A DNA stretch of 34,984 bases from Patescibacteria group bacterium (GCA_023473785.1 JAMCYD010000029.1:1-34984); one strand, 5' to 3'; shown: positions 4,049 to 31,028, counted from the stretch's first letter. Numbers and translations: made by a program. The notes: a model not told the origin generated them from the letters alone.

Positions 4049-4058
4049 TATGCCTATT

Positions 4059-4493: not shown

Positions 4494-4495
4494 AT

Positions 4496-10530: not shown

Positions 10531-10531
10531 T

Positions 10532-16011: not shown

Positions 16012-17223
16012 TTATTTAACCCCCATGTCGTTAAATAAGGATCTTCTTAGCTCTTCCCTCTTGTCAGAGGATATAATTTCTAAAGGTAAAATTATTTCAC
16101 CCGTTGCGTTTATCTCTATGTTGTCAAACTTATTTTGCTCTCTTGGATCTTCGAAAAGCAATGTGTAGACGCCACTTATAATGGGAGTGGCTGAAGCAAA
16201 TTGACCAAGAGCATTTGTTTTAAATGCCCTTACTGGGTTACCGCTATGATCTTTTATTTCAACTAAAATGTTTGCCAGAGGATTTCCCCTCGGATCCTTA
16301 ACCACTCCTGTAATTAGATTTGGAGTATCTGGAAAAATTGGCGTGCCTGTAGCCTTGCCCATTGTCCTTGGGATCATTCTTGTATTTTGTGTTTCTTCTT
16401 TTGGTTGAGCCGTACTTGGGGTATAAACATTTTGTTTTTGTATTCCTATTTCCTTCTGAAGCCCAAGCAGTCTTTCTTCAAGTGCTTGTTTTTGCGAAAG
16501 AACATCCTGTAAGAATTTTTCAAGCTCAAGAACTTTTTGATGGGTAGCTGCATAACTAGGAGTTCCGATCTCTGTTCTTTCCTTTATTTTCGTCTCTGAA
16601 AGTTTTTTCTTAAGAGCCAGAACTTCAGTATCTGTTTGCTTTTCCTCTTCATCTTGTTTCATTTCTTTTTCTTCCCTAGGTTTTTCTCCTGCAAGGCGAT
16701 CTCCACTTGGTCCTTGAGTTACAATTTGTGGAGCTTGCTGGATAGGAATACTTCCTAAGATAGGAGAGAGGGACTGAAAGAAAGCCGTTTCTTTTTGATC
16801 AAGTTGGTTTTTTGGTTGTTGAGGAAGAGACTTAAGAAAATTACGCAATTTATCATCGGCAGTTGATGCTTGTTGGATTGCTGTCTGGGCTGTTTCTTGA
16901 GGAAGATTTGATGCTTGCGGAAACCATATATGTCCTCCTGTTTTTTGATAAACGTATTGAGTAGGACTAAATAGATCTTTTAAAAAATTGGTAATTACTA
17001 CATCAAGCGATCTTCCGGAGACCGGAAAAAAAGCTGTTGCAATTCCAAGAAACATGAATAGCATTGCGATTGGAATTTTAATTAGAAAAAAAATCGGCAG
17101 CGCGAAAAAAATCCATCCTAGAATCATTCCGACTGCAAGATAAGCGAATTGTTTAATTGTCATGTCTCCAATAAGCTTGAATTGAAAGCCTGTTATGTCC
17201 TGCGGTATGGGATGATTCTCCAT
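16012..17223 (-). CDS. PrgI/VirB3-like membrane protein fused to a Q-rich/coiled-coil linker and a C-terminal carboxypeptidase-regulatory-like beta-sandwich
   Basis: N-terminus IPQDITGFQFKLIGDMTIKQFAYLAVGMILGWIFF plus a second TM matches the PrgI-family layout (about nt 16939-17223). Aa 170-265 are charged and heptad-like. Aa 302-385, ITGVVKDPRGNPLANILVEIKDHSGNPV...TNALGQF...GVYTLLFE, is CarboxypepD_reg-like (about nt 16069-16320). Confidence 0.5.
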   Translation of the reverse strand: MENHPIPQDITGFQFKLIGDMTIKQFAYLAVGMILGWIFFALPIFFLIKIPIAMLFMFLGIATAFFPVSGRSLDVVITNFLKDLFSPTQYVYQKTGGHIWFPQASNLPQETAQTAIQQASTADDKLRNFLKSLPQQPKNQLDQKETAFFQSLSPILGSIPIQQAPQIVTQGPSGDRLAGEKPREEKEMKQDEEEKQTDTEVLALKKKLSETKIKERTEIGTPSYAATHQKVLELEKFLQDVLSQKQALEERLLGLQKEIGIQKQNVYTPSTAQPKEETQNTRMIPRTMGKATGTPIFPDTPNLITGVVKDPRGNPLANILVEIKDHSGNPVRAFKTNALGQFASATPIISGVYTLLFEDPREQNKFDNIEINATGEIILPLEIISSDKREELRRSLFNDMGVK

Positions 17224-17417
17224 AATGCTTCAAATAGTGTATAACGTGAAAAATCCCATTTCAAGATTATCAAAGTAGGTCAAAAATTGAGAAAAATAAG
17301 GCTAGCGTGAAAACTAAGCAAAATCAGTTAAATAAAGTACATATTCAGTAGGATTTCCCATAGCCGCAGCGTCTCTCGTAATAAAAGAAGATGCCAAAAG
17401 TCAAGAAAAAGTAGATC

Positions 17418-17446
17418 TTGCAGTAATTTTTTCTTTTATATATACT
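17418..17446 (+). promoter_or_regulatory. sigma70-like promoter placed for a leaderless transcript
   Basis: TTGCAG (17418-17423), 17-nt spacer, TATACT (17441-17446), then 7 nt to the ATG at 17454. No Shine-Dalgarno sequence is possible. Confidence 0.35.
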
Positions 17447-17453
17447 CTTCTTG

Positions 17454-18080
17454 ATGAGTGAAATAGGTGAAGGTTCTTTACCCATTGCCTCAAGGCCCTC
17501 AAAAGTTTCGACAGCAGAAGCGATCAGAGATAAAGGCATTTTCTCTTGGGAAAGAGTAATGCCAAGACTTAAAGAGGATGTTAAAAAAGGAAAAACTCTT
17601 GTTATCACAAACGGTCATTTCGTTATGCTCCACCCTGGTCATTCATTTGGGTTTGAAGAGGCTAGGAGAGCAGGAGCAAAAAAAGCAGGAAGTGATTCAG
17701 CTGTAGATCTTTTGGTGATTGTAAATAATGACCGGCAGACAAAAGGGAAAGACCCTGTTAAGGGAACTCAAAACGCAAGCGAAAGGGCTTTGGGAGTTCT
17801 TGACAATAGACACACGGATTTTGTAGTGATTTCGATGGGAGAAGGAGACCAAAGCGTTTTGGGTGACATGCTTCTTTTGGAAAGAGAGGGTTTGCTTGGA
17901 GAGAACGTAATCTATGTCAAGGGAGGAGATTATGATAATGGAGAGAACAGACCCTCTGAGGCTGAAATTGTTGAAAAGAATGGCGGACAGTTTGTAATAA
18001 TTGATAGGGTACAAGGATATTCTACGACTAGTACTTTGAACAGGATGGTAGAGGCACTAAGGACAAAAGGAGGGATATGA
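17454..18080 (+). CDS. cytidylyltransferase-fold nucleotidyltransferase, most like HldE domain II / HldC (heptose-1-phosphate adenylyltransferase)
   Basis: Matches to the RfaE domain II pattern: LVITNGHFVMLHPGHSFGFEEAR (HxGH), LLVIVNNDRQTKGK, VIYVKGGDY, and GGQFVIIDRVQGYSTTSTL. The track start is TTG 17451; the ATG is at 17454. Confidence 0.6.
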   Translation: MSEIGEGSLPIASRPSKVSTAEAIRDKGIFSWERVMPRLKEDVKKGKTLVITNGHFVMLHPGHSFGFEEARRAGAKKAGSDSAVDLLVIVNNDRQTKGKDPVKGTQNASERALGVLDNRHTDFVVISMGEGDQSVLGDMLLLEREGLLGENVIYVKGGDYDNGENRPSEAEIVEKNGGQFVIIDRVQGYSTTSTLNRMVEALRTKGGI

Positions 18081-18343
18081 AAATAACAATTTTTACATCG
18101 ACTTTGTGTCCTTTCTCAGATCTTGTAATCAGTGATTTAAGAAAAGTGGGATTGGAGCCTGAGGTTAAAATCGCCGACGTAGACGTTGATGCTACAAAAG
18201 AGATGGCAGAGCTTACTAAAAGAGCTTTCACTCCGGTAACTAAAATAACCAAGGAAGACGGCTCGTTCATCGTAGTTGAGGGATACAACGGCAAGAAAAA
18301 GAAATTAATAGAAGACGCTTTAGGTGTTAAATTAAGCAGCTGA
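18077..18343 (+). CDS. glutaredoxin/NrdH-like small thioredoxin-fold protein (single-Cys CPFS site)
   Basis: 88 aa. MKITIFTSTLCPFSDLV...TPVTKITKEDGSFIVVEGYN fits the glutaredoxin-like beta-alpha-beta layout. There is a 4-nt overlap with the upstream gene. Confidence 0.55.
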   Translation: MKITIFTSTLCPFSDLVISDLRKVGLEPEVKIADVDVDATKEMAELTKRAFTPVTKITKEDGSFIVVEGYNGKKKKLIEDALGVKLSS

Positions 18344-20056
18344 GGTAACTTGCTGTTTTCTTTTAATTTCCAGATCTACTAATCCAGTAAGCAATTTAAT
18401 TAAATTGTCTCTTCTCTGGCAAAGTGTTCTAGCGATATAGCTTTTTATTCCCTCGTTGCGCATATGTTTAAGTGTTGTTTCTGCATCTTGAGTCCACCTT
18501 AGATCTCGAAAGAATCTTGCCGAAAGAACTCCATCCACGATATATCCTTTTTCAATATCACTCTGAGAGGGATCTCTATAAGAAAAGATGGTTTGAGAGA
18601 GTTTATCTTTCGAGGACTGTATTTTTCTTTCAAACCCTTCTAAGATTATTACTTCATCCTCTCTTTGGGGATATCCCGCTTCTTCTACTGCCGATCTGAT
18701 TTCCTGATCCTGAAGTGTTCCTAGTCTTGCAAGACTCTTTTTTAGAAGATCAGGGTCTGCGATTCTAATAAAACCGTTAGGTCCCCCTTCAATCGTTAAA
18801 ACATTTGCATAAGCTTCATTAACAGGGACATCTGCATTTGGATTATCATCAGGAACTGTTCTTAAAAGATCCCACATATTTTCAGGAGTAACTTCTCCAC
18901 TGAAACCTTTTAAACCACCGGTTGCACGCGAGAAAAGGGCTGCCCCGTGATCTATAAATGCTATTTTTCCATCCTTCATCATTACATTGTGAGGTCTACG
19001 ATTATACTGGCTTAGAAGAAGATCAATAATTAAACCTTCTTGAAGGTATTGGTTTATTAGGTACTTTTGACTGAGCTCAAAGGGATTAGCCTCCTCATAG
19101 TATCCTTCAAGAAATCCGACAACTAATACGCTTGAAGTTGTTGTTGTACCTTCTTTAGAAGTTTCCACTATATCTTGAAGATTAATGTCTGGAACTGGTA
19201 GTCCCATCAATTTCATGATTCTATTTTGAACAATTTCAGATTGAAGAGTGTGCTTTGCCTCGGGAGGCGACTTCTTAACTACAAACCTTCTTCCTTCCTC
19301 GTCTTGCCAAATCTCAATCATGTTAGATACTTGTTTTGCTCCTGTCAGCTTTTTAACAAGGAATTTTGTTCCTAAAGGAGTTTCCCATACATCTAACGTC
19401 TCGTCTTGATGATTTTCTTGTCCTACAAGTTTTGCTCCTGAGATATCAATTAAATCTGAAACAACTTGCTCTCTCGATTCCAATACGGCTCGAGATATGG
19501 CCTGTTCCTCAACCCACTTTTGAAGTTTGGGATTTCCAGACAGAACACCCAAGCTTTTAAGTTTCGAGGCAGAGTTTAAAAAATCTTCTAGTTTTTGTTT
19601 CGCCTGGGCAGTATCAAGTGAGGGATTTAGGGTTGTAATTCTTGTCTTTCCATTTTCATCAATTTCTATTTTGTTAAGAGGATTTTGGGGATCAGGTACA
19701 TAGGAAATATCCTCTATGCGAGGATAGTCAAATCGAGGTCTTTTTCCTAAAATGCCTGCTTTTACTCCATGAGCAAGAAGAGAAAATTCGGGAGTAAGAA
19801 GAAGGTCATTCTCGATCCCCAAGCGTCTCAATTCATTTATAGCCGCGACCGCTTTTGATCCGAGATCAGATTTTGCCTTATCGAAGAGATCTTTGGCTTG
19901 AGATTTGTCTTCAGATTTAAGACTTTCTTTTTCAGCCTTTCTTTCAAGGACTTCTTCAAAAGAAGGAAGTTTTCTCTCCCTTCTTAGTCTATTGTGTTTT
20001 ATCTGTTCGGTTGGAGGACTAGAAGAGATAGCTTCCTGTCCGTCTCTGATTTCCAT
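18332..20056 (-). CDS. hypothetical protein with a possible protein-kinase-like core lacking the catalytic Asp
   Basis: 574 aa. Candidate kinase landmarks: GRRFVVKK (beta3 Lys), QSEIVQNRI (alphaC Glu), VVGFLEG (hinge), QYNRRPHNVMM (aligns to HRDLKPEN with Asp replaced by Asn), and AFIDHG (DFG-like). This alignment was done by eye only. Confidence 0.3.
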   Translation of the reverse strand: MEIRDGQEAISSSPPTEQIKHNRLRRERKLPSFEEVLERKAEKESLKSEDKSQAKDLFDKAKSDLGSKAVAAINELRRLGIENDLLLTPEFSLLAHGVKAGILGKRPRFDYPRIEDISYVPDPQNPLNKIEIDENGKTRITTLNPSLDTAQAKQKLEDFLNSASKLKSLGVLSGNPKLQKWVEEQAISRAVLESREQVVSDLIDISGAKLVGQENHQDETLDVWETPLGTKFLVKKLTGAKQVSNMIEIWQDEEGRRFVVKKSPPEAKHTLQSEIVQNRIMKLMGLPVPDINLQDIVETSKEGTTTTSSVLVVGFLEGYYEEANPFELSQKYLINQYLQEGLIIDLLLSQYNRRPHNVMMKDGKIAFIDHGAALFSRATGGLKGFSGEVTPENMWDLLRTVPDDNPNADVPVNEAYANVLTIEGGPNGFIRIADPDLLKKSLARLGTLQDQEIRSAVEEAGYPQREDEVIILEGFERKIQSSKDKLSQTIFSYRDPSQSDIEKGYIVDGVLSARFFRDLRWTQDAETTLKHMRNEGIKSYIARTLCQRRDNLIKLLTGLVDLEIKRKQQVTSAA

Positions 20057-20118
20057 AATTTTTAATCTGCAAACTTCTTTGGAGTTCTTCTTCGCTAACC
20101 TCCTCCTTTGGCCAGGTC

Positions 20119-23100
20119 TTACGGGGAAGAAGCCAAAAGTTCAAAAGCCATTTCGGCTATACGTTCGGGAGCAATTCTATTAATTAATTTTTTACTTTCG
20201 TCTGTTTCCATGACATCTACCGTTGGTAATCTTTCTTCCTCCTCTTGAGTTAGGGTTATTTGTTTTTGCTTGGGACTTGAAGCCCACATGGAAGGAGGGA
20301 AATTTCTTGGCATATAGATGGTTGCAACATTGGGTCCACCTTCAATCGCTACAGCTACATGTGCAAGCCCCGTATCATTTGACAAAACTACGTTTTGGTG
20401 ACTCAAGAGAACAGCAGCTTCAACAAGGGTAGACGATATAATATTTACTCTATCAAGGACTCCAACCCCTCTTAAGGCATTTTCTATCTCCTCTTTTGTG
20501 TAGGAAGGATCTTGAGGACCACCATTATATAAAAGATTAAACTGGTAATTAGGGTCTCTAGTAGCCATTATTTTTATGGTCTCAGCCCAATTTGAGAGGC
20601 TATATCTTTTACCGGGTATTTTGGATTCGATTACAATGCCAATTTGAGGACTTGAGGGATTAATGCTGTATCTGCTCGTAAGAGACCCGTAGATGCTCGT
20701 TTCATTAGGAGGAAGAGCTATTGTGGTTTTTGCATCTTGAGGCATAATCGTTCCTTCAGATAACGAGAAGAGATCCTCGATAAAACGTGCATATTTCGCT
20801 TGGCCATCAGAGTTATTATTATAAAGCTCAATTGCTGGAGAAAATAGGTTTGAGATAAAAGTTATTCTTTTCTTTGTTCCGTCTTCCTGAGAAGTTACTA
20901 CTGGATTCTCAGCTCTATAATGTTCAAAGTCAATGATCAAGGGGTTACGGGCAGAAGATGTTAACGCTTGAGCAGATGCATTTTGAAAACCATAACCCCT
21001 TAAGGCTGGAATTAATTTTATTTTTTCAGTTTCAAAACCTTTAAAGAGTTCTTGATGGTCCTTGTTTATTATTACGTTAATCTTGATATTCCTGCCTTCA
21101 ATAGCTTTTTTAATTGCTTGGAGATAAGCGGTTGCAATTACCGCATCTCCAATTGCTCCTCCAAGGATGACATATATTTCATCGCATCTATCAAGGGCCT
21201 CTCGGATTTCCTTTAACGCTTTTTTTCCCTCTTGCTGATCAGTCAAAATTTCTCCCGAAGAAGAGGTTCTCAAAACATCCCTAATTCTTGATCCCTTTGG
21301 AAATATCCCTTCAGGATAATATGGATAAATTAATTCGGGAGGAATAAGTGCCTCGAGAGGATGTCTTGGGGCAAAGGGGATGGGGATAATAGGTGGTGCT
21401 TCAAATGTTTCATGAAGAGGAGGAATTATATCAATGGCGAAGTGGTGGGTAATCATAGATTCTGAAGGCGGAATTGCGTTAATGATTTCAGATGGGATTG
21501 GTTGAGGAGAGGAAGTTTCCAGAGCAACCGAGGCGAGAGAATGGACAGTAGTTCCGCCGGGGATTGTTCCTTCCTGCAGTACAGAGCCTGATCTAAGAAG
21601 ATTTCCATCTTTTTCCAAAATTGCAGATGCAATTGATCTTACTCCTTGAATCTCCCCGGTTTGAGGATTAAAAAGCTCTTGCGGTAATCGGGCGTTTCCC
21701 AAATTGTCTGCTCCCAGCATAATTTGTCTTCCGTCGTTTAAATCAACTACAAAAACCATGTCGTTATGATGAATAGGACCATTTGCTGTAATCAGCTGAT
21801 CCAGCACTTGATCGTGCATTGGGGCAACTCCGGGGAGATTGGAAGGGATAAGGTCACCCTTTATGTCTCCGCCAAAATTAAGTATTCCCTTTTGATCAGT
21901 TACCCATCTGCCATTTTCATCTAAATACTGACCAATATGAAGAGTGAGCTCGTTATGAGTATGCTCCCCAGTCTGCGCAACAATATCGGGACGAAGAACA
22001 TGAAAATTCCAGGATTTTCGTACCATGTCTGTTTCGATAATGCCTTGTTTTTGAAGCTCTGAAGGAGAGGAAGATAAAAGATGGTCAACTGCAGTAACAC
22101 TACCTGCCTGATGAGCTTCAGTGACATTAAATCCGGCAGCCGCTAAATCACGATGAAGTGCTGCGAAATCAACATTTGGATTACCTATTTGGTCAAAGGT
22201 TAATGTCCCGTCTGGCGACACATGTCCTTCTAGGGTTGCATTGGCTAAAGTATCATGAATTGTTACATGGTTTGTAACTCCATTAACTTCAATGTCCAGT
22301 CCCTTCTGGTGAAAAGATTTGGTAAGCTCATGTTTTGAGATAGTTTCTTGAACACTAGAGAGCATAGATGGTGATCTTGCGGTAGTTTCGTGGATGCTGG
22401 AGGCAAAGCCAGAAGCAGAAAATCCGTTTCTTAGTTGCTCGGCTGCATCACGGCTTAACCCATCTCCGGCAACAATATTATGAAGGACTCCATCGGGTCC
22501 AATACTTCCCGAAGCAATTGCCTGGTGAGTAGCTTCGTCAACAATGGATACGGAGTGATCGGCGGGATTTATTACAGCCTGCATGTGATTGCCAAGCTCA
22601 GCACTTCCTCCATGAGCATAGAGATCTTTAAAGTGATCGATATTTGGTGGTCCTCCCTGTTCATGTTGACCAAAAAGCCCGGTTACTTTATGAATGCCTT
22701 TTTCTATGACAGTTTGCCCCGCAGAAAGTCCTGCTGCTCGCTCGCCCAGCGCAATGCCCTCCTGAACAAGAAATCCAGCTCCAAGACCTACTGTTCCTCC
22801 AAAAACAGCAGCTCCTGCCGCCTGTCGCAATCTATAACGGGCAAAGGCTCTATCCTGCTGCTCTCTGTTTTGGGTAAAACGGCTATTCCACTGTCCTGTA
22901 AATCTTGTTTCAAGTTCTTGGATCTCTTCATTTGACATTCCTGAATTTCTTAATGCTTGAATTGACCTAGCGACTGAATTTATTAGCACTAGACGGCCTT
23001 GTTCTACCTGTTCGCGGGATTGATAAGTAACCAAATCAACTCTCTCTCGGGAGGAAAAATCAAGCCTTGATTGTATTTCTGTAATTCTTCGGGCAACAGC

Positions 23101-24957
23101 CTCTCTGTTGGATGTCTGTCCTTCGGATAAGTCTTGGGAGAGAAGCTCCTCAAGGCTTTGCCTATCTGTTCCGGTAAGAAGCTCCTGCCCTCCGCCATTT
23201 ATCATTTGATCAACAGAAGCAGTATTGTAGGAAAGCTGCTCAAGTGCCTCTCTTCGTCTTGCGCCCTGAGGAATTCGCATATTGTAAGCTCGTTCAACCT
23301 GATGCGAAGCTCTATCGATTTTAAGGTCGTAGTTTCTTCTTGCTGCTGCGAAAAGAGCACCAGGCAAAAGTCCTGCTCCCGGAACTATAAATTGACTTGC
23401 TCTTGCGCCAAAACCCAGTCCTCTCATAAGGCCAAAAGTTCCAATTGAAAACCCCGCACCTATTGTGGCTGGATTAATAAGGGTACCGGTTAATCTATGT
23501 CTCTCTGCCCAGGCAATAGCTCTATCTACAGCGTTGAGCCTTACTTGTGTTTCTGCTGCCCAACTGGTATTGGCAAGCCTGACTTGTATCAGACTATCAA
23601 GCTCATCAAGTGAATACCTATGTGCTTCCAGATCTCCTTTTATAGCTTCTCCTGTTTCCAAAAGATCCGTTGCGAAATATTCTGCCAGCCTACCGAATTG
23701 ATTTGCGTCTCTTCCGAATACTGCCTGTACTTGCGGATCGTCTTGATGATTTTCTACAAATTCTCGAAGACGTTGCTGAATTTGGGCTTGATCGGCTATT
23801 CCTCCTTCAACCACAGGTCTTATAATGTCATTGATAATTGTTGTTCGCAGTTCTCCTTGTGCTTCTACCGTCTGTTGACCTTCTATAAGCGTGCCAGTTC
23901 TCAGTTGTTCTATTTTTGCTTGTCCTGCTTGCCTTTCCTCTGAAAGCCTATGGGTTGCGTCAACTGCTGCGTTTCTTACAACATCCATAGAGAGATAGGA
24001 GTTGTTATTCGCAAGCATTTCCCGGCTTGCTCTCTCTATATATCTTTGCCTGTGAAACTCCTCCATTACGCGAAGTCCTATTTTCCTTGGCCAATTTAAG
24101 GGATTTAAAAAGCTTCCTCTTCTCATTTCATTTCTTAATTGCTCATCCGCAAGTTCCCTTGCTCTTTTTTGAACATCCAGAGTTCTATTGATAATCATAA
24201 CTTCTCTTCGGACTTGTTCAGGAGACTCGGGTTCTGGTTCGGCGACTTCTTCTGATTCAGGCTCTGGCGTCGTCTCAGAAGGAGCCGTAGAAGTTCCATC
24301 TGTTGGTGGTTGCGCTGGGGTAATTTCAGTAGCTTCAGATGTTGGCGCTGATTCAGGTTCTGGTGAGGGTGGTGAAGGCTGAGTAGATGAAGGAGGAGTA
24401 ATTAACTCCCGGCGTCCAAAAAGAATTCTGCCTGCTTCCAGAAAATCATCATGGGGATTTCCCTTTGTAAGTCTTGGGTCAGATGATATTCTCTGAGATT
24501 CCTGGTTTATTCTTGCTATCTTACGCGAGTAGTCTTTTTTTGCCGCCCCCCTATAATATTCCTGCGAATTTCTATGAAGAATTTTTTCCAGTTCCTTGTA
24601 TTCTGTTTCATCCTCAGCTGTTAACTCGCCGCTCTTGACTCTGTCTCTAAGGAATAGGATCAGCTCATCAACGGGCACATATTCTCTCTGAGAGAATTTT
24701 TCCCCATCTTCGCTTTCGAATCTATTTAGATAAGATGCTTTTCCTTTATCTAGAGTTTCCCCCCTGATGTGCTTAATTAATTCTCTTGTAGCCTGCTGTT
24801 GTGGGGTTAATTTGTCTTCTGGATAACTTTCAAATATTGAATAAGCGGAATTGAAGGCATTAATTACAGTTTCACGACTGTCTCGAATTTCAACTCTTCT
24901 TGTGGCATCATGAGTGATTGGTGCGCCAACACCTGCTTCTCCTTCTGCTTCTGGCAT
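20119..24957 (-). CDS. 1612-aa multidomain membrane protein with a C-terminal GT9 (heptosyltransferase-like, GT-B) domain
   Basis: - Aa 186-247: Pro/Glu/Ser/Thr-rich linker (nt 24217-24402).
- Two Gly-rich hydrophobic hairpins: aa 495-540 (nt 23338-23475) and aa 712-745 (nt 22723-22824).
- Internal ~50-aa repeat at aa 798-851 and 893-943.
- Pro-rich segment at aa 1150-1215.
- GT9 blocks IYVILGGAIGDAVIATAYLQAIKK and VVLSNDTGLAHVAVAI (aa ~1258-1612, nt 20122-21186). Confidence 0.6.
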   Translation of the reverse strand: MPEAEGEAGVGAPITHDATRRVEIRDSRETVINAFNSAYSIFESYPEDKLTPQQQATRELIKHIRGETLDKGKASYLNRFESEDGEKFSQREYVPVDELILFLRDRVKSGELTAEDETEYKELEKILHRNSQEYYRGAAKKDYSRKIARINQESQRISSDPRLTKGNPHDDFLEAGRILFGRRELITPPSSTQPSPPSPEPESAPTSEATEITPAQPPTDGTSTAPSETTPEPESEEVAEPEPESPEQVRREVMIINRTLDVQKRARELADEQLRNEMRRGSFLNPLNWPRKIGLRVMEEFHRQRYIERASREMLANNNSYLSMDVVRNAAVDATHRLSEERQAGQAKIEQLRTGTLIEGQQTVEAQGELRTTIINDIIRPVVEGGIADQAQIQQRLREFVENHQDDPQVQAVFGRDANQFGRLAEYFATDLLETGEAIKGDLEAHRYSLDELDSLIQVRLANTSWAAETQVRLNAVDRAIAWAERHRLTGTLINPATIGAGFSIGTFGLMRGLGFGARASQFIVPGAGLLPGALFAAARRNYDLKIDRASHQVERAYNMRIPQGARRREALEQLSYNTASVDQMINGGGQELLTGTDRQSLEELLSQDLSEGQTSNREAVARRITEIQSRLDFSSRERVDLVTYQSREQVEQGRLVLINSVARSIQALRNSGMSNEEIQELETRFTGQWNSRFTQNREQQDRAFARYRLRQAAGAAVFGGTVGLGAGFLVQEGIALGERAAGLSAGQTVIEKGIHKVTGLFGQHEQGGPPNIDHFKDLYAHGGSAELGNHMQAVINPADHSVSIVDEATHQAIASGSIGPDGVLHNIVAGDGLSRDAAEQLRNGFSASGFASSIHETTARSPSMLSSVQETISKHELTKSFHQKGLDIEVNGVTNHVTIHDTLANATLEGHVSPDGTLTFDQIGNPNVDFAALHRDLAAAGFNVTEAHQAGSVTAVDHLLSSSPSELQKQGIIETDMVRKSWNFHVLRPDIVAQTGEHTHNELTLHIGQYLDENGRWVTDQKGILNFGGDIKGDLIPSNLPGVAPMHDQVLDQLITANGPIHHNDMVFVVDLNDGRQIMLGADNLGNARLPQELFNPQTGEIQGVRSIASAILEKDGNLLRSGSVLQEGTIPGGTTVHSLASVALETSSPQPIPSEIINAIPPSESMITHHFAIDIIPPLHETFEAPPIIPIPFAPRHPLEALIPPELIYPYYPEGIFPKGSRIRDVLRTSSSGEILTDQQEGKKALKEIREALDRCDEIYVILGGAIGDAVIATAYLQAIKKAIEGRNIKINVIINKDHQELFKGFETEKIKLIPALRGYGFQNASAQALTSSARNPLIIDFEHYRAENPVVTSQEDGTKKRITFISNLFSPAIELYNNNSDGQAKYARFIEDLFSLSEGTIMPQDAKTTIALPPNETSIYGSLTSRYSINPSSPQIGIVIESKIPGKRYSLSNWAETIKIMATRDPNYQFNLLYNGGPQDPSYTKEEIENALRGVGVLDRVNIISSTLVEAAVLLSHQNVVLSNDTGLAHVAVAIEGGPNVATIYMPRNFPPSMWASSPKQKQITLTQEEEERLPTVDVMETDESKKLINRIAPERIAEMAFELLASSP

Positions 24958-24962
24958 AATAT

Positions 24963-25382
24963 TTAGTCTTTTGGCGCCACGTCCGGGGCAGCTTTATTCT
25001 CATCAGACGTGCCAGCTGCGTTTGGCGCTGGCGCATTTCTTGCTACGGATACATTACTTAAATATAGGTTTCGAAAATCAGAAAAAGCATTGGCGAAAAC
25101 TTCCTGAGCGTTTGGCATTTTGTCTTTTAAAAACTGTTCTATTTCCGCCTGCGATTTCTTTTCCTCGTTCATTTTGATAAATTCGTCAAGATTTTCAGAT
25201 GGAAGTTTTTCAATAATTGCTGAGGCAATAAAGTTATCCAAGCGTGCAAAGAGTTCTTTTATCATTTCCTCCCTCATTTGATCATCCAGCGTTGTCATGC
25301 CGGCATCTTTAAGAAGACCATCCAGGTAATTCCTTATTTCTTGCGGAATTTCAAGTTTTGGTGCTTGATTTTGCGTGTCCAT
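24963..25382 (-). CDS. small acidic, predicted all-helical protein of unknown function, first gene of the giant-protein operon
   Basis: 139 aa with no TM and an Ala/Pro-rich C-terminal tail. Its stop lies 5 nt before the start of the 1612-aa gene. Confidence 0.4.
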   Translation of the reverse strand: MDTQNQAPKLEIPQEIRNYLDGLLKDAGMTTLDDQMREEMIKELFARLDNFIASAIIEKLPSENLDEFIKMNEEKKSQAEIEQFLKDKMPNAQEVFANAFSDFRNLYLSNVSVARNAPAPNAAGTSDENKAAPDVAPKD

Positions 25383-25388
25383 AAAATT

Positions 25389-25418
25389 AGTATGAACTAG
25401 TTAATTTATATTTGTCAA
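25389..25418 (-). promoter_or_regulatory. sigma70-like promoter placed for a leaderless transcript of the 139-aa/giant-protein operon
   Basis: On the minus strand: TTGACA (25418-25413), 18-nt spacer, CATACT (25394-25389), then 6 nt to the ATG at 25382. Its -35 hexamer overlaps, on the opposite strand, the -35 of the divergent plus-strand promoter. Confidence 0.3.
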
Positions 25419-25440
25419 GCACTACCTCTTCTTATATACT
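25412..25440 (+). promoter_or_regulatory. sigma70-like promoter placed for a leaderless transcript of the HExxH membrane protein gene
   Basis: TTGTCA (25412-25417), 17-nt spacer, TATACT (25435-25440), then 7 nt to the ATG at 25448. Confidence 0.35.
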
Positions 25441-25447
25441 TAAACAA

Positions 25448-26143
25448 ATGGTTTTTCTTTTAATTTTCATTTTTGAACTTACTTTTCTATATTTCCTATC
25501 TAATCTTTTACAAAAATCCTTATCTAGGGCGATCTTTAGTATCGTTAAAAGCGCAACAGCCACCGTTAATGTTCTTTTGATCCTTTTTCTTCCAGGAGTT
25601 ATAATCCATGAGCTTTCTCATTTTCTGGTAGCAAGTCTGCTTTTTGTCAAGACAGGGGAAATTAAATTTTTGCCAGAGATAACAGAAGAGGGAACAAGAC
25701 TTGGAAGTGTCGGAATTGGGAAAACCGATCCAATAAGGCGGGCAATTATTGGTTTTGCCCCGGTTCTTTTGGGGCTGATAGTTCTCCTTGGACTAACCTA
25801 TTATTTAACGCAGGGGAGCGCGTCAATTTCCATCATCAAACTAAGCGGAGTATATGGAATATTTTTTTATCTAATTTTAATTTATCTGTTATTTGCTGTT
25901 GGCAACACCATGTTTTCAAGTAAAAAAGATCTAGAGGGTACGATTGAGCTTTTTATTGTTCTGGGGATAATTTTCTTTGCATCTTATGTGGCGGGAATAA
26001 GAATGCAAGCTACCTGGATACAGACTTTGTTAAGAAACGAGATAATAGATTTTATTAAAAGAGTAGATTTGTTCTTTATTATTCCTATCGGAATCGATAT
26101 TTTTATATATTTATTAGCCGTCGCGTTTATTAAAAGGAGATAA
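25448..26143 (+). CDS. polytopic membrane protein with an intramembrane HExxH motif (putative zinc metalloprotease, M50/DUF3267-like)
   Basis: LPGVIIHELSHFLVA lies at the edge of a TM helix, with at least 5 further TM helices. The track ORF begins at TTG 25412. The ATG at 25448 (MVFLLIFIF...) is preferred because a good promoter occupies 25412-25440. Confidence 0.45.
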   Translation: MVFLLIFIFELTFLYFLSNLLQKSLSRAIFSIVKSATATVNVLLILFLPGVIIHELSHFLVASLLFVKTGEIKFLPEITEEGTRLGSVGIGKTDPIRRAIIGFAPVLLGLIVLLGLTYYLTQGSASISIIKLSGVYGIFFYLILIYLLFAVGNTMFSSKKDLEGTIELFIVLGIIFFASYVAGIRMQATWIQTLLRNEIIDFIKRVDLFFIIPIGIDIFIYLLAVAFIKRR

Positions 26144-26151
26144 GAAGTGAA

Positions 26152-26463
26152 TTATTTACAATTGCCAAAGCCAAATTGCTTGATGCAGGGAACATTGGTG
26201 ATATCACTTATAACGTTGACGATGAAAAATGAAAGCAGAACAATAATCAGGCCAATGATTGCATAAGTTAGGGTATTTCTTGCATCCTCAACTAGTTTTG
26301 GCTGACCTCCCGATCTGATAAATTTCAGTCCTGCGAATATAATAAAAAATACAGCGGCAATCGCTGAAAAAATAAAAATCCATTTGACAACATTCTGAAA
26401 GACTATAGGAATACAGCTAAGCGTTGCTACTCCCTCGGGGCTTAAACAGCTCGTCCAGTCCAT
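26152..26463 (-). CDS. VirB2/TrbC-like T4SS pilin paralogue 1
   Basis: 103 aa with two TM helices around the shared core FAGLKFIRSGGQPKLVEDARNTLTYAIIGLIIV. An N-terminal Cys-x10-Cys loop is present and there is no signal peptide. Confidence 0.6.
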   Translation of the reverse strand: MDWTSCLSPEGVATLSCIPIVFQNVVKWIFIFSAIAAVFFIIFAGLKFIRSGGQPKLVEDARNTLTYAIIGLIIVLLSFFIVNVISDITNVPCIKQFGFGNCK

Positions 26464-26515
26464 ATAATAAGATTAGCAAGGAAAAAATAAAAAGGCAAGA
26501 TTAGAACAGAAGAAC

Positions 26516-26953
26516 TTATGGGCACTTTAATGGATTTCCTGCGAGATCATTGATTGTCAGATTGGTTACCGGATTAGGCTGGCCAAGCAGCTGGAAAATT
26601 AATCCAATGATGAAAAAGGCACCGACAACTATAACAAGACCTACTATTGCGGCAACAATGTGATTTCTTGCCGTTTCAACCGCACTTTTATCTCCGCCTG
26701 ATAATATCCACTTAACGCCACCAAAGATAAGAAATATCACCGCAATAACTATGCCGATTATAAAAACAAGCTGAATTAAGAATTGAGGAACTTTTGTCAG
26801 ACAGATATTACCAATTGATCCTGCCGGAGGAGCAATGGTTACGTTTTGTGCAAAAGCAGAAGCAGCAAGTAATAAATAAGATGAAGCCGTCGCGATAAAT
26901 CCTAATGATTTCCTCATTAATCTTATAATAGGGAGCTTTTTTGGGTTTGTCAA
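26516..26953 (-). CDS. VirB2/TrbC-like T4SS pilin paralogue 2
   Basis: 145 aa with a signal peptide ending AFAQ. Core: FGGVKWILSGGDKSAVETARNHIVAAIVGLVIV. Confidence 0.6.
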   Translation of the reverse strand: MTNPKKLPIIRLMRKSLGFIATASSYLLLAASAFAQNVTIAPPAGSIGNICLTKVPQFLIQLVFIIGIVIAVIFLIFGGVKWILSGGDKSAVETARNHIVAAIVGLVIVVGAFFIIGLIFQLLGQPNPVTNLTINDLAGNPLKCP

Positions 26954-26961
26954 GTCCCGAT

Positions 26962-27294
26962 TTAGCTGGGGCCAAGCGGGAAAAGACTAGGTTTACCGCC
27001 CAGAATTGTTATGATAAGTCTTACTATGGTAAAGGCGGCGGTAATAACTACAAGGCCAATGATTGAGTACGTAAGTCTTGCCCGCGCCTGCTGAATTTGC
27101 TCCTTCTCTCCGCCTGATAATATCCATTGAATGCCAGAGTAGATAACGATAATAACTGCAATTATAATGCCTCCGGCAAAGAGAAAATTAAGCCCCATCT
27201 GAATAATTTTTTGCCCTGTATCCATTCCGCCGGTTGGAACATCCCTAGGCGCTTCTATCGGGGTGCCGCTGATTGATAAAGATAAATACCTCAT
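26962..27294 (-). CDS. VirB2/TrbC-like T4SS pilin paralogue 3
   Basis: 110 aa. Core: YSGIQWILSGGEKEQIQQARARLTYSIIGLVVI. Confidence 0.6.
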   Translation of the reverse strand: MRYLSLSISGTPIEAPRDVPTGGMDTGQKIIQMGLNFLFAGGIIIAVIIVIYSGIQWILSGGEKEQIQQARARLTYSIIGLVVITAAFTIVRLIITILGGKPSLFPLGPS

Positions 27295-27303
27295 AATTAG
27301 TTG

Positions 27304-28476
27304 CTATTTGCCTAGTCCTGGAATTCGGAGTATATCAACGCCGATTATTTGAAGTATGACAAGTGAGAATATTATAAAAAGAAGGCCGATTATTGCAGAT
27401 GTAAGTTGGTCCTTTGCTCCCTCAAGTCTTTCGGGGTTTCCTCGTGATTCCATCAGTTTGTAGCCTGATAATATGATGAGAAGAAGAGCTATTCCGCCTG
27501 AGAAACCAAGAATGAGAGAAAAAATAGATTTTATAAAGCCTGTAGGATCCGTTCCGATCTGGCCTATTGCAGTATTTACACTCTTGCAGCTTCCATTTGG
27601 CCCAAGAGTAGCGCAGGGCGGTGGCGGAGGAGAAAGAGGAGTTTCATCGTTTGCAGCTTGTGTATCGGTAAGAAGCGGATCCTTGATAAGCTCTCCCACG
27701 GATCCGTTGGTTTGATCAACAATAACTTGGGCTTCGTAAAAATCAATATCGTCTACCTTGTCGCATCCCTTAATGCTCAATGTATATGAACCAGCGCTTA
27801 ATTCGTTAGGGTTCTTAGGTACGATTATAGATACTGGGGTATCCGTCTGGGTGATTTTAGTGCAATTGGAATCATAAGATTTATGTTTGCCTTCCGCATT
27901 ATTCTTGAGGGTTAACTTGTAGCTATTTCTATCATCTCCGCCTTGTCTTAATTTCTTCTGAGACATAGATACAGTGATTTGACTGCCGGGAGTCGGATTA
28001 TCAGGGCTTATTGAAATATTCTCATTCTCGAGTTCCGGAAAATAATAATGAACGTAGAATTGGGCAATTGCAGCTTGTTCTTTTGTTTTTGCGTTGAAAA
28101 GAGCGAGTCCATATGTATGTCCGCCATAAAACCAATCTCTGCCTGCTTTACAGTTTTCTTTCACGGTGTATTCTTCGCCTCCACAGATAGTAGTAAAAGA
28201 TAAAGTACCTTCCGAATTAGCATCAATTCTCGCCATTTTCACAAAAGGTGCGTGTACGCCAACAATACATTCATTGATTGTTTGGCGGTTGCACACAAAA
28301 TATGTTGCCCCTGGAATTAGGTTGTCAAACGTGACGGAAACCGTAAGAACAGTCTCATCTATAGAGTCTTTATCTGGGGTAATTGTAACATTGGCAAAAG
28401 CATTATCGGAGCGCAGGAAAAGAAATACTAGAATAAAGAAAAAGAATATTGCAAATTTGGAAAAAATTCTCTTCAC
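27304..28476 (-). CDS. fusion of a ~255-aa secreted Cys-containing beta-rich domain to a C-terminal VirB2/TrbC-like pilin module
   Basis: GTG start and a signal peptide ending AFANV. Aa 28-281 form the extracellular domain (nt 27634-28395). The linker is SPPPPPCATLGPNGSC. Aa 288-390 form the pilin core LSGYKLMESRGNPERLEGAKDQLTSAIIGLLFI, colinear with the three short paralogues. Confidence 0.55.
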   Translation of the reverse strand: MKRIFSKFAIFFFFILVFLFLRSDNAFANVTITPDKDSIDETVLTVSVTFDNLIPGATYFVCNRQTINECIVGVHAPFVKMARIDANSEGTLSFTTICGGEEYTVKENCKAGRDWFYGGHTYGLALFNAKTKEQAAIAQFYVHYYFPELENENISISPDNPTPGSQITVSMSQKKLRQGGDDRNSYKLTLKNNAEGKHKSYDSNCTKITQTDTPVSIIVPKNPNELSAGSYTLSIKGCDKVDDIDFYEAQVIVDQTNGSVGELIKDPLLTDTQAANDETPLSPPPPPCATLGPNGSCKSVNTAIGQIGTDPTGFIKSIFSLILGFSGGIALLLIILSGYKLMESRGNPERLEGAKDQLTSAIIGLLFIIFSLVILQIIGVDILRIPGLGK

Positions 28477-28482
28477 ACTTTT

Positions 28483-28511
28483 ATAGTAGACAAGTTTTAG
28501 GGAATTTGCAA
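28483..28511 (-). promoter_or_regulatory. sigma70-like promoter of the pilin operon, placed for a leaderless transcript
   Basis: On the minus strand: TTGCAA (28511-28506), 17-nt spacer, TACTAT (28488-28483), then 6 nt to the GTG at 28476. Confidence 0.3.
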
Positions 28512-30799: not shown

Positions 30800-31028
30800 A
30801 TTAATTTTGCATTTTGCCTTTTGACCTTTGCCTTTATTGTGTAAGTATATCGTTAGCTAATTGTAATGTAAATATCAAGCACTTCGACTCCGCTCAGCGT
30901 AAACTCGCCTCACTATGAAAAGTATTGAAACAAGAACACAATTTAACAGCGAGGGTTTGACTCCGATTAAATCGGAGTTGACACCGCAACCCAATCCTCC
31001 TACACTTGAGAAAAGAGGAGATATTTTT

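Follow-up and report, generated by a model that had tools for sequence, protein, structure and literature searches.

Architecture of the giant protein

The window analysed here is a 34,984-nt stretch of DNA from a Patescibacteria group bacterium, a member of the ultra-small CPR bacteria. On its minus strand, at 20119..24957, lies an ORF of 1612 aa with an ATG start, which the ORF list and the translation confirm as a real gene, as first annotated. The product, hereafter the giant protein, consists of four parts: a base (aa 1-745), a stalk (aa 783-1180), a proline junction (aa 1189-1202) and an exchangeable enzymatic head; all features of these parts are given in minus-strand coordinates. AF2 models were made for the N-terminal part, for which structure prediction had been proposed initially, and no known family or fold was matched by the N-terminal 1200 aa in Pfam, NCBIfam, PHROG or Foldseek PDB. 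The N-terminus of the protein is not a signal peptide.

The base starts with an alpha/beta domain (aa 28-185; 24403..24876) that is modelled with a pLDDT of ~90 and has no match in Pfam, NCBIfam or PHROG and none better than E = 0.2 in Foldseek PDB. Next comes the acidic Pro-rich linker noted previously at aa ~190-250. It is evident from composition (13% P and 21% D+E in the block of aa 201-300), is disordered in the AF2 model over aa 192-247 (24217..24384; pLDDT <50) and is the least conserved portion of the base. The remainder is a conserved helical core (aa 250-745; 22723..24210) that defines the family in the representative search and is 92-98% identical to the relative P0003. Two Gly-rich hydrophobic hairpins had been described in the N-terminal ~1250 aa. 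Hydropathy and invariant columns reveal one of them, a Gly/Pro-rich hairpin made of helices H1 (aa 493-512) and H2 (aa 521-539) (23341..23481), in which N495-P496-A497 of H1 are invariant among homologues, but the other is a single Gly-rich, glycine-zipper-like helix (H3, aa 712-737; 22747..22824; Kyte-Doolittle peak 1.67). Hydrophobicity of the helices is marginal, with peaks of 1.2-1.7 in a 19-residue Kyte-Doolittle window and regional means of 0.9-1.5. Thus, the hydrophobic helices behind the label ‘membrane protein’ are present, but because of their marginal hydropathy the membrane status is a prediction, and H1-H3 may fail to span the membrane. Among 27 homologues, the mean number of K+R residues is 2.9 before H1, 0.7 in the loop and 4.0 after H2, and 4.1 before and 1.2 after H3; this pattern fits the positive-inside rule with a predicted N-in/C-out topology.

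The stalk (21418..22611) is hypervariable and, judging by AF2 secondary structure (pLDDT ~70-85), beta-rich. The same beta5-alpha-beta pattern occurs in it twice, at aa 784-862 (22372..22608) and aa 880-955 (22093..22320), and these units contain the duplication of ~50 aa reported earlier, whose copies were located at aa 801-851 and 896-943 (nt 22129-22557). BLASTP of unit 1 against unit 2 gave no alignment at E ≤ 100, while hhalign aligned them in the originally proposed register over 57 columns with 28% identity (P = 2.9e-4). We conclude that the internal duplication in the stalk is real, ancient and weak. A long Pro-rich segment was correctly recognised further on (14% Pro in aa 1101-1200). 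It leads into the conserved proline junction PPIIPIPFAPRHPL (21352..21393), at which heads are swapped. Its P, I, F and R columns are nearly invariant, its motif is found in 50 of 166 family members at a median distance of 81 aa from the head start, and it is the sole part of the 3′ half of the gene with a DNA-level match to distant loci.

The last ~370 aa (aa ~1241-1612; 20122..21237) form a GT9 glycosyltransferase head with a GT-B fold, in line with the initial annotation; Pfam, profile-versus-PDB and fold evidence agree, together with invariant columns. The anticipated Glyco_transf_9 domain (PF01075) is detected at aa 1435-1569 above the curated cut-off (E = 3.8e-9; 36.7 bits versus a gathering score of 22), and the family profile aligns end to end with the GT9 structure 3TOV (E = 1.6e-6; profile positions 44-390, chain positions 10-345). 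An AF2 model of aa 1216-1612 (pLDDT 90.1, pTM 0.88) retrieves exclusively GT9 structures (3TOV, WaaC, WaaF) at Foldseek PDB ranks 1-9, with E-values from 6.5e-13 to 3e-10, probability 1.0 and TM-scores of 0.5-0.72. The two GT9 motifs quoted previously map to aa 1266-1278 and 1526-1538. The motif residues of the head are G1270-D1271, K1450 and N1527-D1528-x-G1530-x-x-H1533; in an alignment of 15 heads all of them are invariant except K1450, which is nearly so. The N-terminal GD, the KR(Y/W) lysine and the (N/V)D(T/S)GxxH motif align with 3TOV, WaaF and WaaC, and we assume that their catalytic roles are those of the corresponding WaaC residues. The intact motifs are compatible with activity, and ADP-heptose is predicted as the probable nucleotide-sugar donor. 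Identity with the LPS heptosyltransferase I/II (WaaC/WaaF) equivalogs was rejected, as scores fall far below the NCBIfam cut-offs (32.1 bits versus 134.6 for TIGR02195, 29.6 versus 185.3 for TIGR02193); PRK10916 gives 22.6 bits against a cut-off of 569. The single Cys of the whole giant protein is located in the head.

Exchange of heads on a conserved platform

A representative search with aa 240-800 retrieved 495 clusters at E ≤ 1e-3 and 136 at E ≤ 1e-30, family size being counted in clusters at 50% identity. Nearly all members sharing the base core are 1000-2900 aa long. What the 41 close and 495 representative homologues have in common is the N-terminal part alone. Among 127 long-tailed members, 61 carry GT2-like heads, 25 carry the same GT9 head, so that the fusion noticed initially is recurrent, and 41 carry others, including PP2C, DUF218, Metallophos and C39-like domains and, according to precomputed annotations, kinases and an FkbM methyltransferase. 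A glycosyltransferase of either fold is present in at least 68% of these members, and some relatives combine several enzymes (GT+kinase, GT+PP2C). GT9 is not a fixed feature of the protein but one swappable head on a conserved platform: in its closest relatives, at 68-88% identity, the head is GT2-like and unrelated. From these sequence comparisons, we consider the giant protein to be one allele of an undescribed, Patescibacteria-specific family of giant modular proteins.

Close relatives reveal where the exchange occurs. P0002 is 80-100% identical across aa 1-1200 and unrelated beyond, thus keeping the stalk of the window with another, GT2-like head; P0003 is 92-98% identical up to aa 700, 22-82% identical in the stalk and unrelated beyond. 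Homology to P0002, P0003 and P0004 stops at aa 1204-1240. The DNA mosaic obtained by blastn against the closest genome, L001, agrees with this protein mosaic: the flanks are 91-92% identical, identity falls from 92% at nt 22773, within H3, and the interval 17317-21351 is unmatched. Recombination breakpoints are thus located after helix 3 and at the proline junction.

Genes around the giant ORF

The interval that has no counterpart in L001 is a 4-kb cassette (17317..21351) that contains, besides the GT9 head, three accessory genes. The kinase-like gene downstream of the giant ORF (18332..20056, minus strand, 574 aa) had been recognised before; its motifs VVK, HNxM and D(H/Q)G are conserved, but its Pfam matches, HipA_2 (E = 0.0018) and PI3_PI4_kinase (E = 0.0022), are both sub-threshold. 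Its homologues are found only downstream of GT9-headed giants. Two plus-strand genes had been missed. One (17451..18080) encodes a 209-aa nucleotidyltransferase resembling HldC and RfaE domain II, which matches TIGR02199 over positions 7-142 of 144 (E = 2.2e-15; 56.7 bits, equivalog cut-off 181.5) and the HldE model (E = 6.9e-13) and whose HxGH motif aligns with that of HldC 5X9Q. The other (18077..18343), with a start that overlaps the HldC-like stop by 4 nt, encodes an 88-aa glutaredoxin-like protein that falls just under the PF00462 cut-off (E = 1.5e-4; 22.3 bits versus 22.9).

These accessory genes accompany GT9 heads in four of six loci and GT2-like heads in none of seven. Further GT9-headed loci that have them are L005, L016 and L017, the HldC-glutaredoxin pair being kept in the latter two, whereas the GT9-headed loci L006/L010 and L018 lack them within 10 kb. 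The HldC-like domain of L005 forms a fusion with an Inositol_P-family phosphatase, which fits a bisphosphate-to-1-phosphate step. The islands in L005, L016 and L017 additionally contain TPR-GT9 or GT9-DUF4214 genes and an FkbM methyltransferase, genes typical of protein or glycan decoration.

On the other side of the giant ORF, at the 5-nt distance noted initially, lies a minus-strand gene for a small acidic protein (24963..25382; 139 aa, pI 4.5), which we identified as DUF5663 (PF18908). It directly precedes the giant gene in all 16 distinct loci and is an obligatory, strictly conserved partner of the giant proteins. Beside it lies a divergently transcribed gene, overlooked before, for a polytopic membrane protein (25412..26143, plus strand) with invariant HExxH and NxxF..D.EG motifs. 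This protein is weakly Peptidase_M50-like: PF02163 matches are sub-threshold in 7 of 12 aligned members (best E = 0.006). Its gene is present in 12 of the 14 loci that have upstream DNA and absent nearby in L014 and L017.

Whether orthologues always neighbour VirB4 and pilin genes had been raised as a question. [quoted passage not shown] The giant gene lies between a pilin array and PrgI/TrsD/VirB4 genes in the window, L001, L015, L016 and L017; in L001 PrgI follows it directly, with no gene between. A separate TrbL/VirB6-like gene is located at 33936-34964 of the window. In those ORFs of the window that were scanned, no VirD4-like coupling protein turned up, the window has no recognisable secretion signal or immunity gene, and pilins and neighbour proteins have no Ser/Thr-rich acceptor tracts. 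LytR-CpsA-Psr genes adjoin the locus in L003 and L005. Genes neighbouring the giant ORF are of Patescibacteria type. The T4SS of Patescibacteria is essential for epibiotic growth in a Saccharibacteria model, has neither relaxase nor linked coupling protein and no known substrate (PMC10633639, PMC12102498); translocation signals for this type are not known (PMC12102498, PMC10633639). VirB6 homologues are reported to be scarce in Microgenomatia, and a PrgB-like adhesin was not found in Patescibacteria (PMC12102498).

Possible roles and comparison with known systems

Two roles had been offered for the protein, a tethered glycosylation machine and a translocated effector; both stay the leading explanations, and the evidence does not choose between them. 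By analogy with known systems, we tentatively place first, somewhat short of an even chance, an outward-presented or delivered effector-like payload, polymorphic and contact-dependent, in which the payload is a modifying enzyme, not a classical toxin. The DUF5663 protein would hold the hydrophobic base soluble or targetable in the manner of a secretion chaperone. The base would insert N-in/C-out, exposing stalk and head outward at the host-cell contact zone, where the stalk would give strain-specific recognition. The head would enter the partner cell through the neighbouring T4SS, following a cut by the M50-like protease, or both; once inside, it would glycosylate a target from a nucleotide-sugar donor, probably ADP-heptose. 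ATP or NDP-sugars, on which kinases and the two kinds of glycosyltransferase depend, are available only inside cells, and we count this in favour of delivery. The modular exchange of heads, the K+R pattern with its predicted N-in/C-out topology, the DUF5663 gene at 16/16 loci and the HExxH neighbour at 12/14, the frequent T4SS flanking, the literature on T4SS and epibiosis and the polymorphic-toxin template (PMC3482391) are likewise counted for the effector, as candidate evidence. The delivery role is proposed purely by analogy, the N-terminal 1200 aa having no homologue of known function. Several observations argue against it: the window lacks a coupling protein, secretion signal and immunity gene; in 7 of 16 loci the available flanks are free of T4SS genes; glycosyltransferase heads, at 68% or more, look like a conserved activity, not an arms-race repertoire; and the marginal hydrophobic helices might not span the membrane. 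A bolder version, which takes the giants for the so far missing substrates of the essential T4SS in Patescibacteria, strikes us as unlikely. Here a DUF5663-chaperoned, glycine-zipper-inserted and M50-like-released platform would carry exchangeable enzymes (GT9, GT2-like, kinase, PP2C) into a host bacterium or archaeon to reprogramme it, with the GT9 allele serving as an effector by which one prokaryote would heptosylate targets in another.

The accessory genes that track GT9 heads point to action in the producer's own cytoplasm instead, since a donor pathway encoded by the producer would be needless if the head worked in the host. The whole protein would then stay on the cytoplasmic face of its own membrane, with the helices as re-entrant or peripheral anchors, and the GT9 head would heptosylate an acceptor on its way to the surface, the ADP-heptose-type donor coming from the kinase-like and HldC-like enzymes inherited with it. 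The acceptor would be a protein or lipid-linked; candidates are proteins of the pilus or T4SS, a wall glycopolymer and the giant itself. A head swap would change the surface glycan type between strains, as flagellin and pilin glycosylation islands do. We regard such producer-side glycosylation as slightly less likely than the effector reading. It agrees with the presence of the HldC-like (TIGR02199, E = 2e-15), kinase-like and glutaredoxin-like genes within the swapped cassette, with their recurrence beside GT9 heads (L005, L016, L017) and at none of the seven GT2-like loci, and with the phosphatase fusion of L005. The TPR-GT9 or GT9-DUF4214 and FkbM genes of the three islands, the LytR-CpsA-Psr neighbours in L003 and L005, the majority of glycosyltransferases among heads and the marginal helix hydrophobicity also speak for it. 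The positive-inside pattern, however, puts the C-terminal part outside (predicted), and two features are left unexplained: heads that are solely PP2C, kinase, Metallophos or C39-like, and a hypervariable stalk that recombines independently of the head (P0002). Acceptor tracts rich in Ser/Thr are absent from pilins and neighbours, and two GT9-headed loci (L006/L010, L018) have no accessory genes within 10 kb.

Regulated intramembrane proteolysis, in which the HExxH M50-like protease would cut the Asn-Pro-containing helix 1, so that ~490 N-terminal residues enter the cytoplasm while the variable C-terminal region serves as sensor or output, appears improbable. Helix-destabilising Asn-Pro residues are determinants of site-2-protease substrates in the SREBP/S2P system; N495-P496 of helix 1 are invariant, conservation extends to the M50-like neighbour and to the N-terminal alpha/beta domain, which AF2 models as well folded, and kinase and PP2C heads are signalling enzymes. 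Against this, the M50 assignment is sub-threshold (best E = 0.006), Pfam and NCBIfam reveal no DNA-binding or sigma/anti-sigma domain in the giant protein, glycosyltransferase heads would be atypical sensors, and the protease gene is not nearby in two assessable loci (L014, L017).

Slightly less credible still is that the protein builds part of the T4SS itself, as a divergent, extended mating component of VirB6/TraG-like or adhesin type with incidental C-terminal enzymes. The position of the gene between the pilin array and PrgI/TrsD/VirB4 (window, L001, L015, L016, L017) would suit this view, as would the reported scarcity of VirB6 in Microgenomatia and the lack of a PrgB-like adhesin in Patescibacteria (PMC12102498), but three weakly hydrophobic helices make no polytopic VirB6 core, a TrbL/VirB6-like gene exists separately at 33936-34964, 7 of 16 loci adjoin no T4SS gene, and Pfam, NCBIfam and Foldseek detect no sequence or fold similarity to any T4SS protein.

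An assembly chimera, a concern raised initially, or a sequencing-error fusion, either of which would have brought together a platform gene and an unrelated, free-standing GT9 gene, is very improbable: the head swap relative to near-identical relatives does fall exactly at the conserved junction, a possible assembler mis-join site, and one relative has the architecture in two ORFs of the same contig (P0019 plus P0042), but an independently assembled contig (L019, run SRR10252151) is 100% identical to window positions 17134-22903, that is, the C-terminal half and flanks, and spans every mosaic breakpoint. A second contig (L020, run SRR10267473) is 100% identical to 17731-20260, and L019 and L020 jointly span all three breakpoints (nt ~21350, ~17317 and ~22770). 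Furthermore, the base-to-GT9 fusion occurs in 24 other clusters, some aligned near full length (P0005, P0007, P0012), and the conserved stretch of junction DNA spans just ~40-50 nt, with ~90% identity to distant loci.

A large fraction of all uncultured bacteria belongs to the Patescibacteria, whose way of life is attachment to other microbes. The giant family is a concrete candidate for the cargo, or a partner, of their T4SS, which is essential to this lifestyle (PMC10633639, PMC12102498): its platform lies inside the T4SS/pilin cluster in many Microgenomatia, has an obligatory small partner and bears enzyme tips exchanged by recombination among near-identical strains. Should the heads work in the host, the family would constitute the group's first effector repertoire and a case of heptose-type glycosylation used by one prokaryote on another; should they work in the producer, strain-variable surface glycans would be built in a new way, through a self-contained and probably non-canonical route to an ADP-heptose-type donor (kinase-like plus HldC-like). 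In both cases, ~1200 residues of no known fold are given a genomic context and hypotheses, as are DUF5663 and a small M50-like protease.

Among known systems, polymorphic toxins provide a template in which an N-terminal trafficking domain, a central presentation region, a pre-toxin junction and a C-terminal variable enzyme are followed by release by a peptidase, possibly membrane-embedded (PMC3482391). Like those toxins (CdiA, PrsW-dependent; PMC3482391), the giants have a conserved N-terminal part, a variable middle, a junction at which homology ends, a C-terminal enzyme cassette recombined between close strains and an associated gene for a membrane-embedded peptidase. Polymorphic toxins have a downstream immunity gene, whereas there is none before PrgI in L001 and the window has the 574-aa kinase-like gene there; they are nucleases, deaminases and pore-formers, whereas heads of the giant family are modifying enzymes (glycosyltransferase, kinase, PP2C). 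None of the trafficking domains TPS, PAAR/VgrG, LXG/WXG, RHS, MuF and PrsW was found in the giant protein with Pfam and NCBIfam, and the peptidase is a separate, weakly M50-like gene, unlike PrsW.

Legionella Lgt1-3 and SetA are glycosyltransferase effectors delivered by a T4SS, and conjugative elements encode polyvalent proteins. With these the giant protein shares large size, enzymatic domains of cytoplasmic type and a gene associated with a T4SS. Lgt1-3 and SetA depend on a coupling protein and on signals at the C-terminus or inside the protein; neither is detectable here, delivery of the giants being a proposal, and the Legionella enzymes are GT-A whereas the head is GT-B. TcdA and TcdB have an N-terminal glycosyltransferase of GT-A fold, an in-built cysteine protease and CROP repeats. 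They likewise combine a glycosyltransferase payload with a hydrophobic helical region, thought to insert into membranes, in one giant polypeptide, but in the opposite domain order and with no sequence or fold similarity to the giant protein.

TibC and AAH, which act on the adhesins TibA and AIDA-I, resemble the present case as GT9-related, ADP-heptose-dependent enzymes coupled to a large surface protein. The fold match of the head to TibC is significant (4RAP/4RB4, E ~1e-6) but weaker than to WaaC/WaaF, and TibC is a separate soluble iron-containing dodecamer (according to PDB titles) whereas the head is covalently fused. The iron site of TibC uses cysteines. Identity as an autotransporter heptosyltransferase (TibC/AAH) was thus rejected, WaaC/WaaF being closer in structure and the whole protein having one Cys. 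WaaC/WaaF and other CAZy GT9 enzymes (2GT1/2H1H, 1PSW, 3TOV) are the best structural matches, with the GT-B two-Rossmann fold in common, and an HldC-like gene, putatively for an ADP-heptose-type donor, lies near the giant gene. To our knowledge, the Patescibacteria lineage is generally regarded as devoid of LPS, and a Kdo2-lipid A acceptor therefore seems unlikely. WaaC and WaaF are stand-alone enzymes of 320-350 aa, whereas here GT9 is the exchangeable tip of a 1612-aa protein.

GT9 head and modular architecture of the giant protein

The giant ORF (window 20119-24957, minus strand, ATG start) encodes 1612 aa. The initial annotation had placed a GT9 glycosyltransferase domain at its C terminus, and the motifs quoted there correspond to aa 1266-1278 and 1526-1538. 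The Pfam Glyco_transf_9 model matches aa 1435-1569 (E=3.8e-9, 36.7 bits against a gathering score of 22), and a profile built from 15 GT9 heads gives an end-to-end alignment to 3TOV, a GT9 structure (E=1.6e-6), and can be aligned to WaaF and WaaC as well. The conserved motifs are intact: G1270-D1271, K1450 and N1527-D1528-x-G1530-x-x-H1533 show no or almost no variation among the heads in this profile and line up with equivalent motifs in solved GT9 enzymes, a conservation compatible with an active enzyme. When the AlphaFold model of aa 1216-1612 (pLDDT 90.1) was compared with the PDB, the best nine matches were GT9 chains without exception (E 6.5e-13 to 3e-10), with TibC ranking after them (E about 1e-6). 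Since Pfam, profile, motif and fold evidence agree, the GT9 assignment is confirmed. The WaaC and WaaF equivalog models are matched weakly (29.6 and 32.1 bits versus cut-offs of 185 and 135); the head belongs to GT9 but is neither a WaaC/WaaF equivalog nor a TibC-type enzyme. The whole protein gave just a marginal WaaF match among PDB sequences (E=0.04). A weak Thioredoxin_9 match (aa 1259-1319) was rejected because it falls within the first Rossmann half of the GT-B fold.

A whole-protein search retrieved 41 relatives of 990-2370 aa, all from Patescibacteria metagenomes, and a search with the core (aa 240-800) gave 495 representative clusters, with 136 reaching E≤1e-30. Named genomes carrying the family are Daviesbacteria, Levybacteria and 'Patescibacteria group'; several other family loci bear automatically assigned 'uncultured Gammaproteobacteria' titles. 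Relatives share only the N-terminal part with the giant protein, and homology to the three closest (88, 79 and 68% identity) ends at aa 1204-1240. Sliding-window identity revealed two breakpoints, independent of each other. One homologue, P0002, keeps 80-100% identity throughout aa 1-1200 and is unrelated beyond; another, P0003, has 92-98% identity up to aa ~700 and 22-82% in the stalk, and is unrelated afterwards. The second breakpoint is the site of a nearly invariant motif, PxIPxPFxPRxP (aa 1189-1200). The architecture is modular, with recombination at defined points.

The alternative head of the closest relatives is a domain of ~400 aa with a DxD-like motif, assigned to GT2 because individual members match Pfam GT2 families (E down to 6e-9); the best PDB match of the GT2-like head profile was one GT2 at E=0.26. 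A census by phmmer on the collected family set (a word-indexed search with the head alone gave two proteins only) covered 127 members that extend for 700 aa or more beyond the core. GT2-like heads were present in 61, GT9 heads in 25 and neither in 41; a sample of 25 of these last heads included PP2C, DUF218, Metallophos and C39-like peptidase domains. Kinases, PP2C domains and an FkbM methyltransferase were also found behind glycosyltransferase heads. On one 11.6-kb contig, a 1235-aa platform ending just past the junction (P0019) and a 480-aa GT9 head (P0042) are separate ORFs; the two are either naturally divided at the junction or separated by a frameshift.

The initial annotation had allowed for an assembly chimera within the giant ORF, which was not borne out. 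Two contigs, L019 (run SRR10252151) and L020 (run SRR10267473), are 100% identical to window 17134-22903 and 17731-20260, respectively, and jointly span all three mosaic breakpoints; the base-to-GT9 fusion recurs in 24 further clusters. Judged from these sequences, a chimera is unlikely, and an artefactual origin of the ORF is extremely improbable.

The N-terminal 1200 residues

In an AlphaFold model of this part, built from 27 sequences (pLDDT 71, pTM 0.43), aa 28-185 are confidently modelled as an alpha/beta domain, aa 192-247 form an acidic, Pro-rich linker that is disordered, and aa 250-745 make up a helical core. After a short disordered stretch comes a beta-rich region with a terminal Pro-rich segment (aa 783-1180). 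Searches by sequence and fold revealed no resemblance to Pfam, NCBIfam, PHROGs or PDB entries; PHROGs likewise gave no match for the giant protein or five neighbours. Foldseek against the PDB found nothing below E=0.2, its sensitivity being limited by the multi-domain model and its pTM of 0.43, and the top match, a cyanophage pre-ejectosome, was rejected (probability 0.09). The ~50-aa internal repeat noticed earlier is recovered in the same register by profile-profile alignment (P=2.9e-4) and appears as a duplicated beta5-alpha-beta unit in the model; BLASTP between both units gave no alignment, and profile comparison is needed to detect it.

Hydropathy indicates a Gly/Pro-rich hairpin (aa 493-539, helices H1 and H2) and a single Gly-rich helix (H3, aa 712-737), all of marginal hydrophobicity. 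Across 27 homologues, the mean number of basic residues is 2.9 ahead of H1, 0.7 in the loop and 4.0 past H2, and it falls from 4.1 to 1.2 across H3, as expected for an N-in/C-out topology.

T4SS locus and swapped cassette

The window lies next to the replication origin, and its gene content is typical of Patescibacteria. The minus-strand order is a TrbL/VirB6-like gene, a Trans_reg_C regulator between two 23S-IVP genes, four T4SS_pilin genes, an HExxH membrane protein encoded on the plus strand, DUF5663 (24963-25382, 139 aa), the giant gene, a kinase-like gene, PrgI, a TrsD-like gene, VirB4 and an M23 peptidase; past the latter lie rnpA, yidC, dnaA and dnaN. This layout agrees with published work, in which Patescibacteria T4SS lie close to dnaA and have pilin arrays (PMC12102498).

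Neighbour frequencies were counted over 16 distinct loci. DUF5663, of which no mention was found in searchable literature, lies immediately upstream of the giant gene in 16 of 16 and is its obligatory partner. The weakly M50-like HExxH protein (12 of the 14 loci for which upstream DNA exists) and T4SS genes are frequent neighbours; the proposed link to T4SS genes held in the available flanks of 9 of the 16 loci, not all. The HExxH protein (25412-26143, plus strand) is small and polytopic, with invariant H66, E67, H70 and D106 and an invariant NxxF..D.EG motif, and 7 of its 12 members gave sub-threshold Peptidase_M50 matches. In the giant protein, H1 (aa 493-512) contains an invariant Asn-Pro-Ala (aa 495-497, nt 23467-23475), reminiscent of the residues that break the helix in site-2-protease substrates, which makes H1 a possible intramembrane cleavage site.

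Several other genes of the window deserve mention. The four divergent T4SS_pilin (PF18895) genes form an array (26152-28476, minus strand), the first encoding 390 aa with a Cys-containing N-terminal extension of ~300 aa ahead of the pilin domain. Pilins and PrgI were rejected as obvious Ser/Thr-rich acceptors, their composition being unremarkable and no pilin Ser/Thr-rich. Between the PrgI and VirB4 genes, a 222-aa ORF (15342-16010, minus strand) is similar to VirB4-like ATPases and TrsD in their N-terminal part (NF045975, E=4e-11; NF041427, E=9e-4); it is the TrsD-type component, reported to be the commonest T4SS partner in Patescibacteria (PMC12102498). Adjoining the TrbL/VirB6-like gene is a 1003-aa ORF without family match (30915-33926, plus strand), a second large, fast-evolving protein of the T4SS cluster: its 942-aa positional counterpart in the closest genome, L001, is distant (E=3.7e-21) despite ~90% identical flanks, and a closer homologue is found at locus L008 (E=2e-156). 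The two 23S_rRNA_IVP (four-helix-bundle) genes (28560-28982 and 30395-30799, minus strand) flank the regulator; segment 28494-29032 is unmatched in L001, and such genes also stand at island borders in loci L016 and L017, directly ahead of the PrgI gene. Finally, 1334-5860 (minus strand) includes genes for a 904-aa DUF4012 protein, a 151-aa RNase H-like product and a 454-aa Wzy_C/PglL_A membrane protein, O-antigen-ligase/O-oligosaccharyltransferase-like, which could move glycans onto surface proteins and may bear on a cis-glycosylation reading.

Comparison of the window with L001 by blastn showed flanks of 91-94% identity, no match for 17317-21351, 73% identity for 21479-22269 and 92% for 22773-28493; in L001 the PrgI gene directly follows the giant gene. 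The 4-kb interval contains the GT9 head, the kinase-like gene (18332-20056, minus strand, 574 aa) and two plus-strand genes missed by the initial annotation. The first (17451-18080, 209 aa) encodes an HldC/RfaE-domain-II-like nucleotidyltransferase with an HxGH motif, matching TIGR02199 across nearly the full model at E=2.2e-15, under the equivalog cut-off. The second (18077-18343, 88 aa) is glutaredoxin-like, and its first 4 nt overlap the stop of the HldC-like gene; the pair recurs in L016 and L017. Minus-strand ORFs 17345-17608, 17697-18014 and 18028-18294 were rejected because they overlap these plus-strand genes, which have homologues.

Homologues of the kinase-like and HldC-like genes lie downstream of GT9-headed giants at loci L005, L016 and L017. 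Accessory genes accompany GT9 heads at 4 of 6 loci versus GT2-like heads at 0 of 7 (Fisher exact p ~0.02, hand-calculated); the donor-pathway-like cassette is linked to GT9 heads. In L005 (11305-12807, minus strand) and L016 (12039-13550, minus strand) the HldC-like domain forms the C-terminal part of a ~500-aa protein. The N-terminal half of the L005 fusion is an inositol-monophosphatase-family (Inositol_P) domain (E=2e-43), and this domain pairing suggests a phosphatase-adenylyltransferase providing a non-canonical route to ADP-sugar. Further genes in the islands of these three loci are of TPR-GT9 or GT9-DUF4214 type or encode an FkbM methyltransferase. Sequence and profile searches with the kinase-like gene yielded no NCBIfam match and nothing meaningful in the PDB, and its eight homologues are all unnamed; for these reasons, its identity as a heptose anomeric kinase stays a guess. 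Compared with L001, a second segment, 10530-12591, is also replaced: it comprises a 351-aa ORF (N-terminal hydrophobic segment, no family match) and the 5' part of the M23-peptidase gene, where L001 has 157-aa and 462-aa ORFs instead.

Site of action and likeness to known systems

Two readings compete for the site of the head's action, which we infer. That the head is presented outwards or delivered, in the manner of a polymorphic effector, is plausible if tentative. The allelic architecture fits the polymorphic-toxin template (PMC3482391), the predicted topology is C-out, the stalk is hypervariable, the partner chaperone-like, and the heads include ATP- or NDP-sugar-dependent enzymes, for which there would be no use outside cells. 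The adjoining T4SS is also without known substrate, as are Patescibacteria T4SS (PMC10633639). What outward delivery leaves unexplained is the donor genes. These genes, HldC-like, kinase-like and glutaredoxin-like, are linked to the head as expected if heptosylation occurs on the producer side, on an acceptor destined for the surface. Producer-side heptosylation is also consistent with the glycosylation-island content of related loci, the prevalence of glycosyltransferases among heads and the weakly hydrophobic helices, but it does not account for PP2C-only or kinase heads or for the independent shuffling of stalk and head; we consider it possible but doubtful. A RIP-controlled signalling protein and a structural T4SS subunit are both very improbable.

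No description of the family, DUF5663 or the locus type was found in searchable literature. That the family is the first effector system of Patescibacteria T4SS appears rather unlikely. As a whole, the giant protein works most like polymorphic toxins and effectors, but the defining immunity gene and a known trafficking domain of such systems are both absent from protein and locus, and it should therefore not be classed as a polymorphic toxin. We rate it instead as a new platform for exchangeable C-terminal enzymes.
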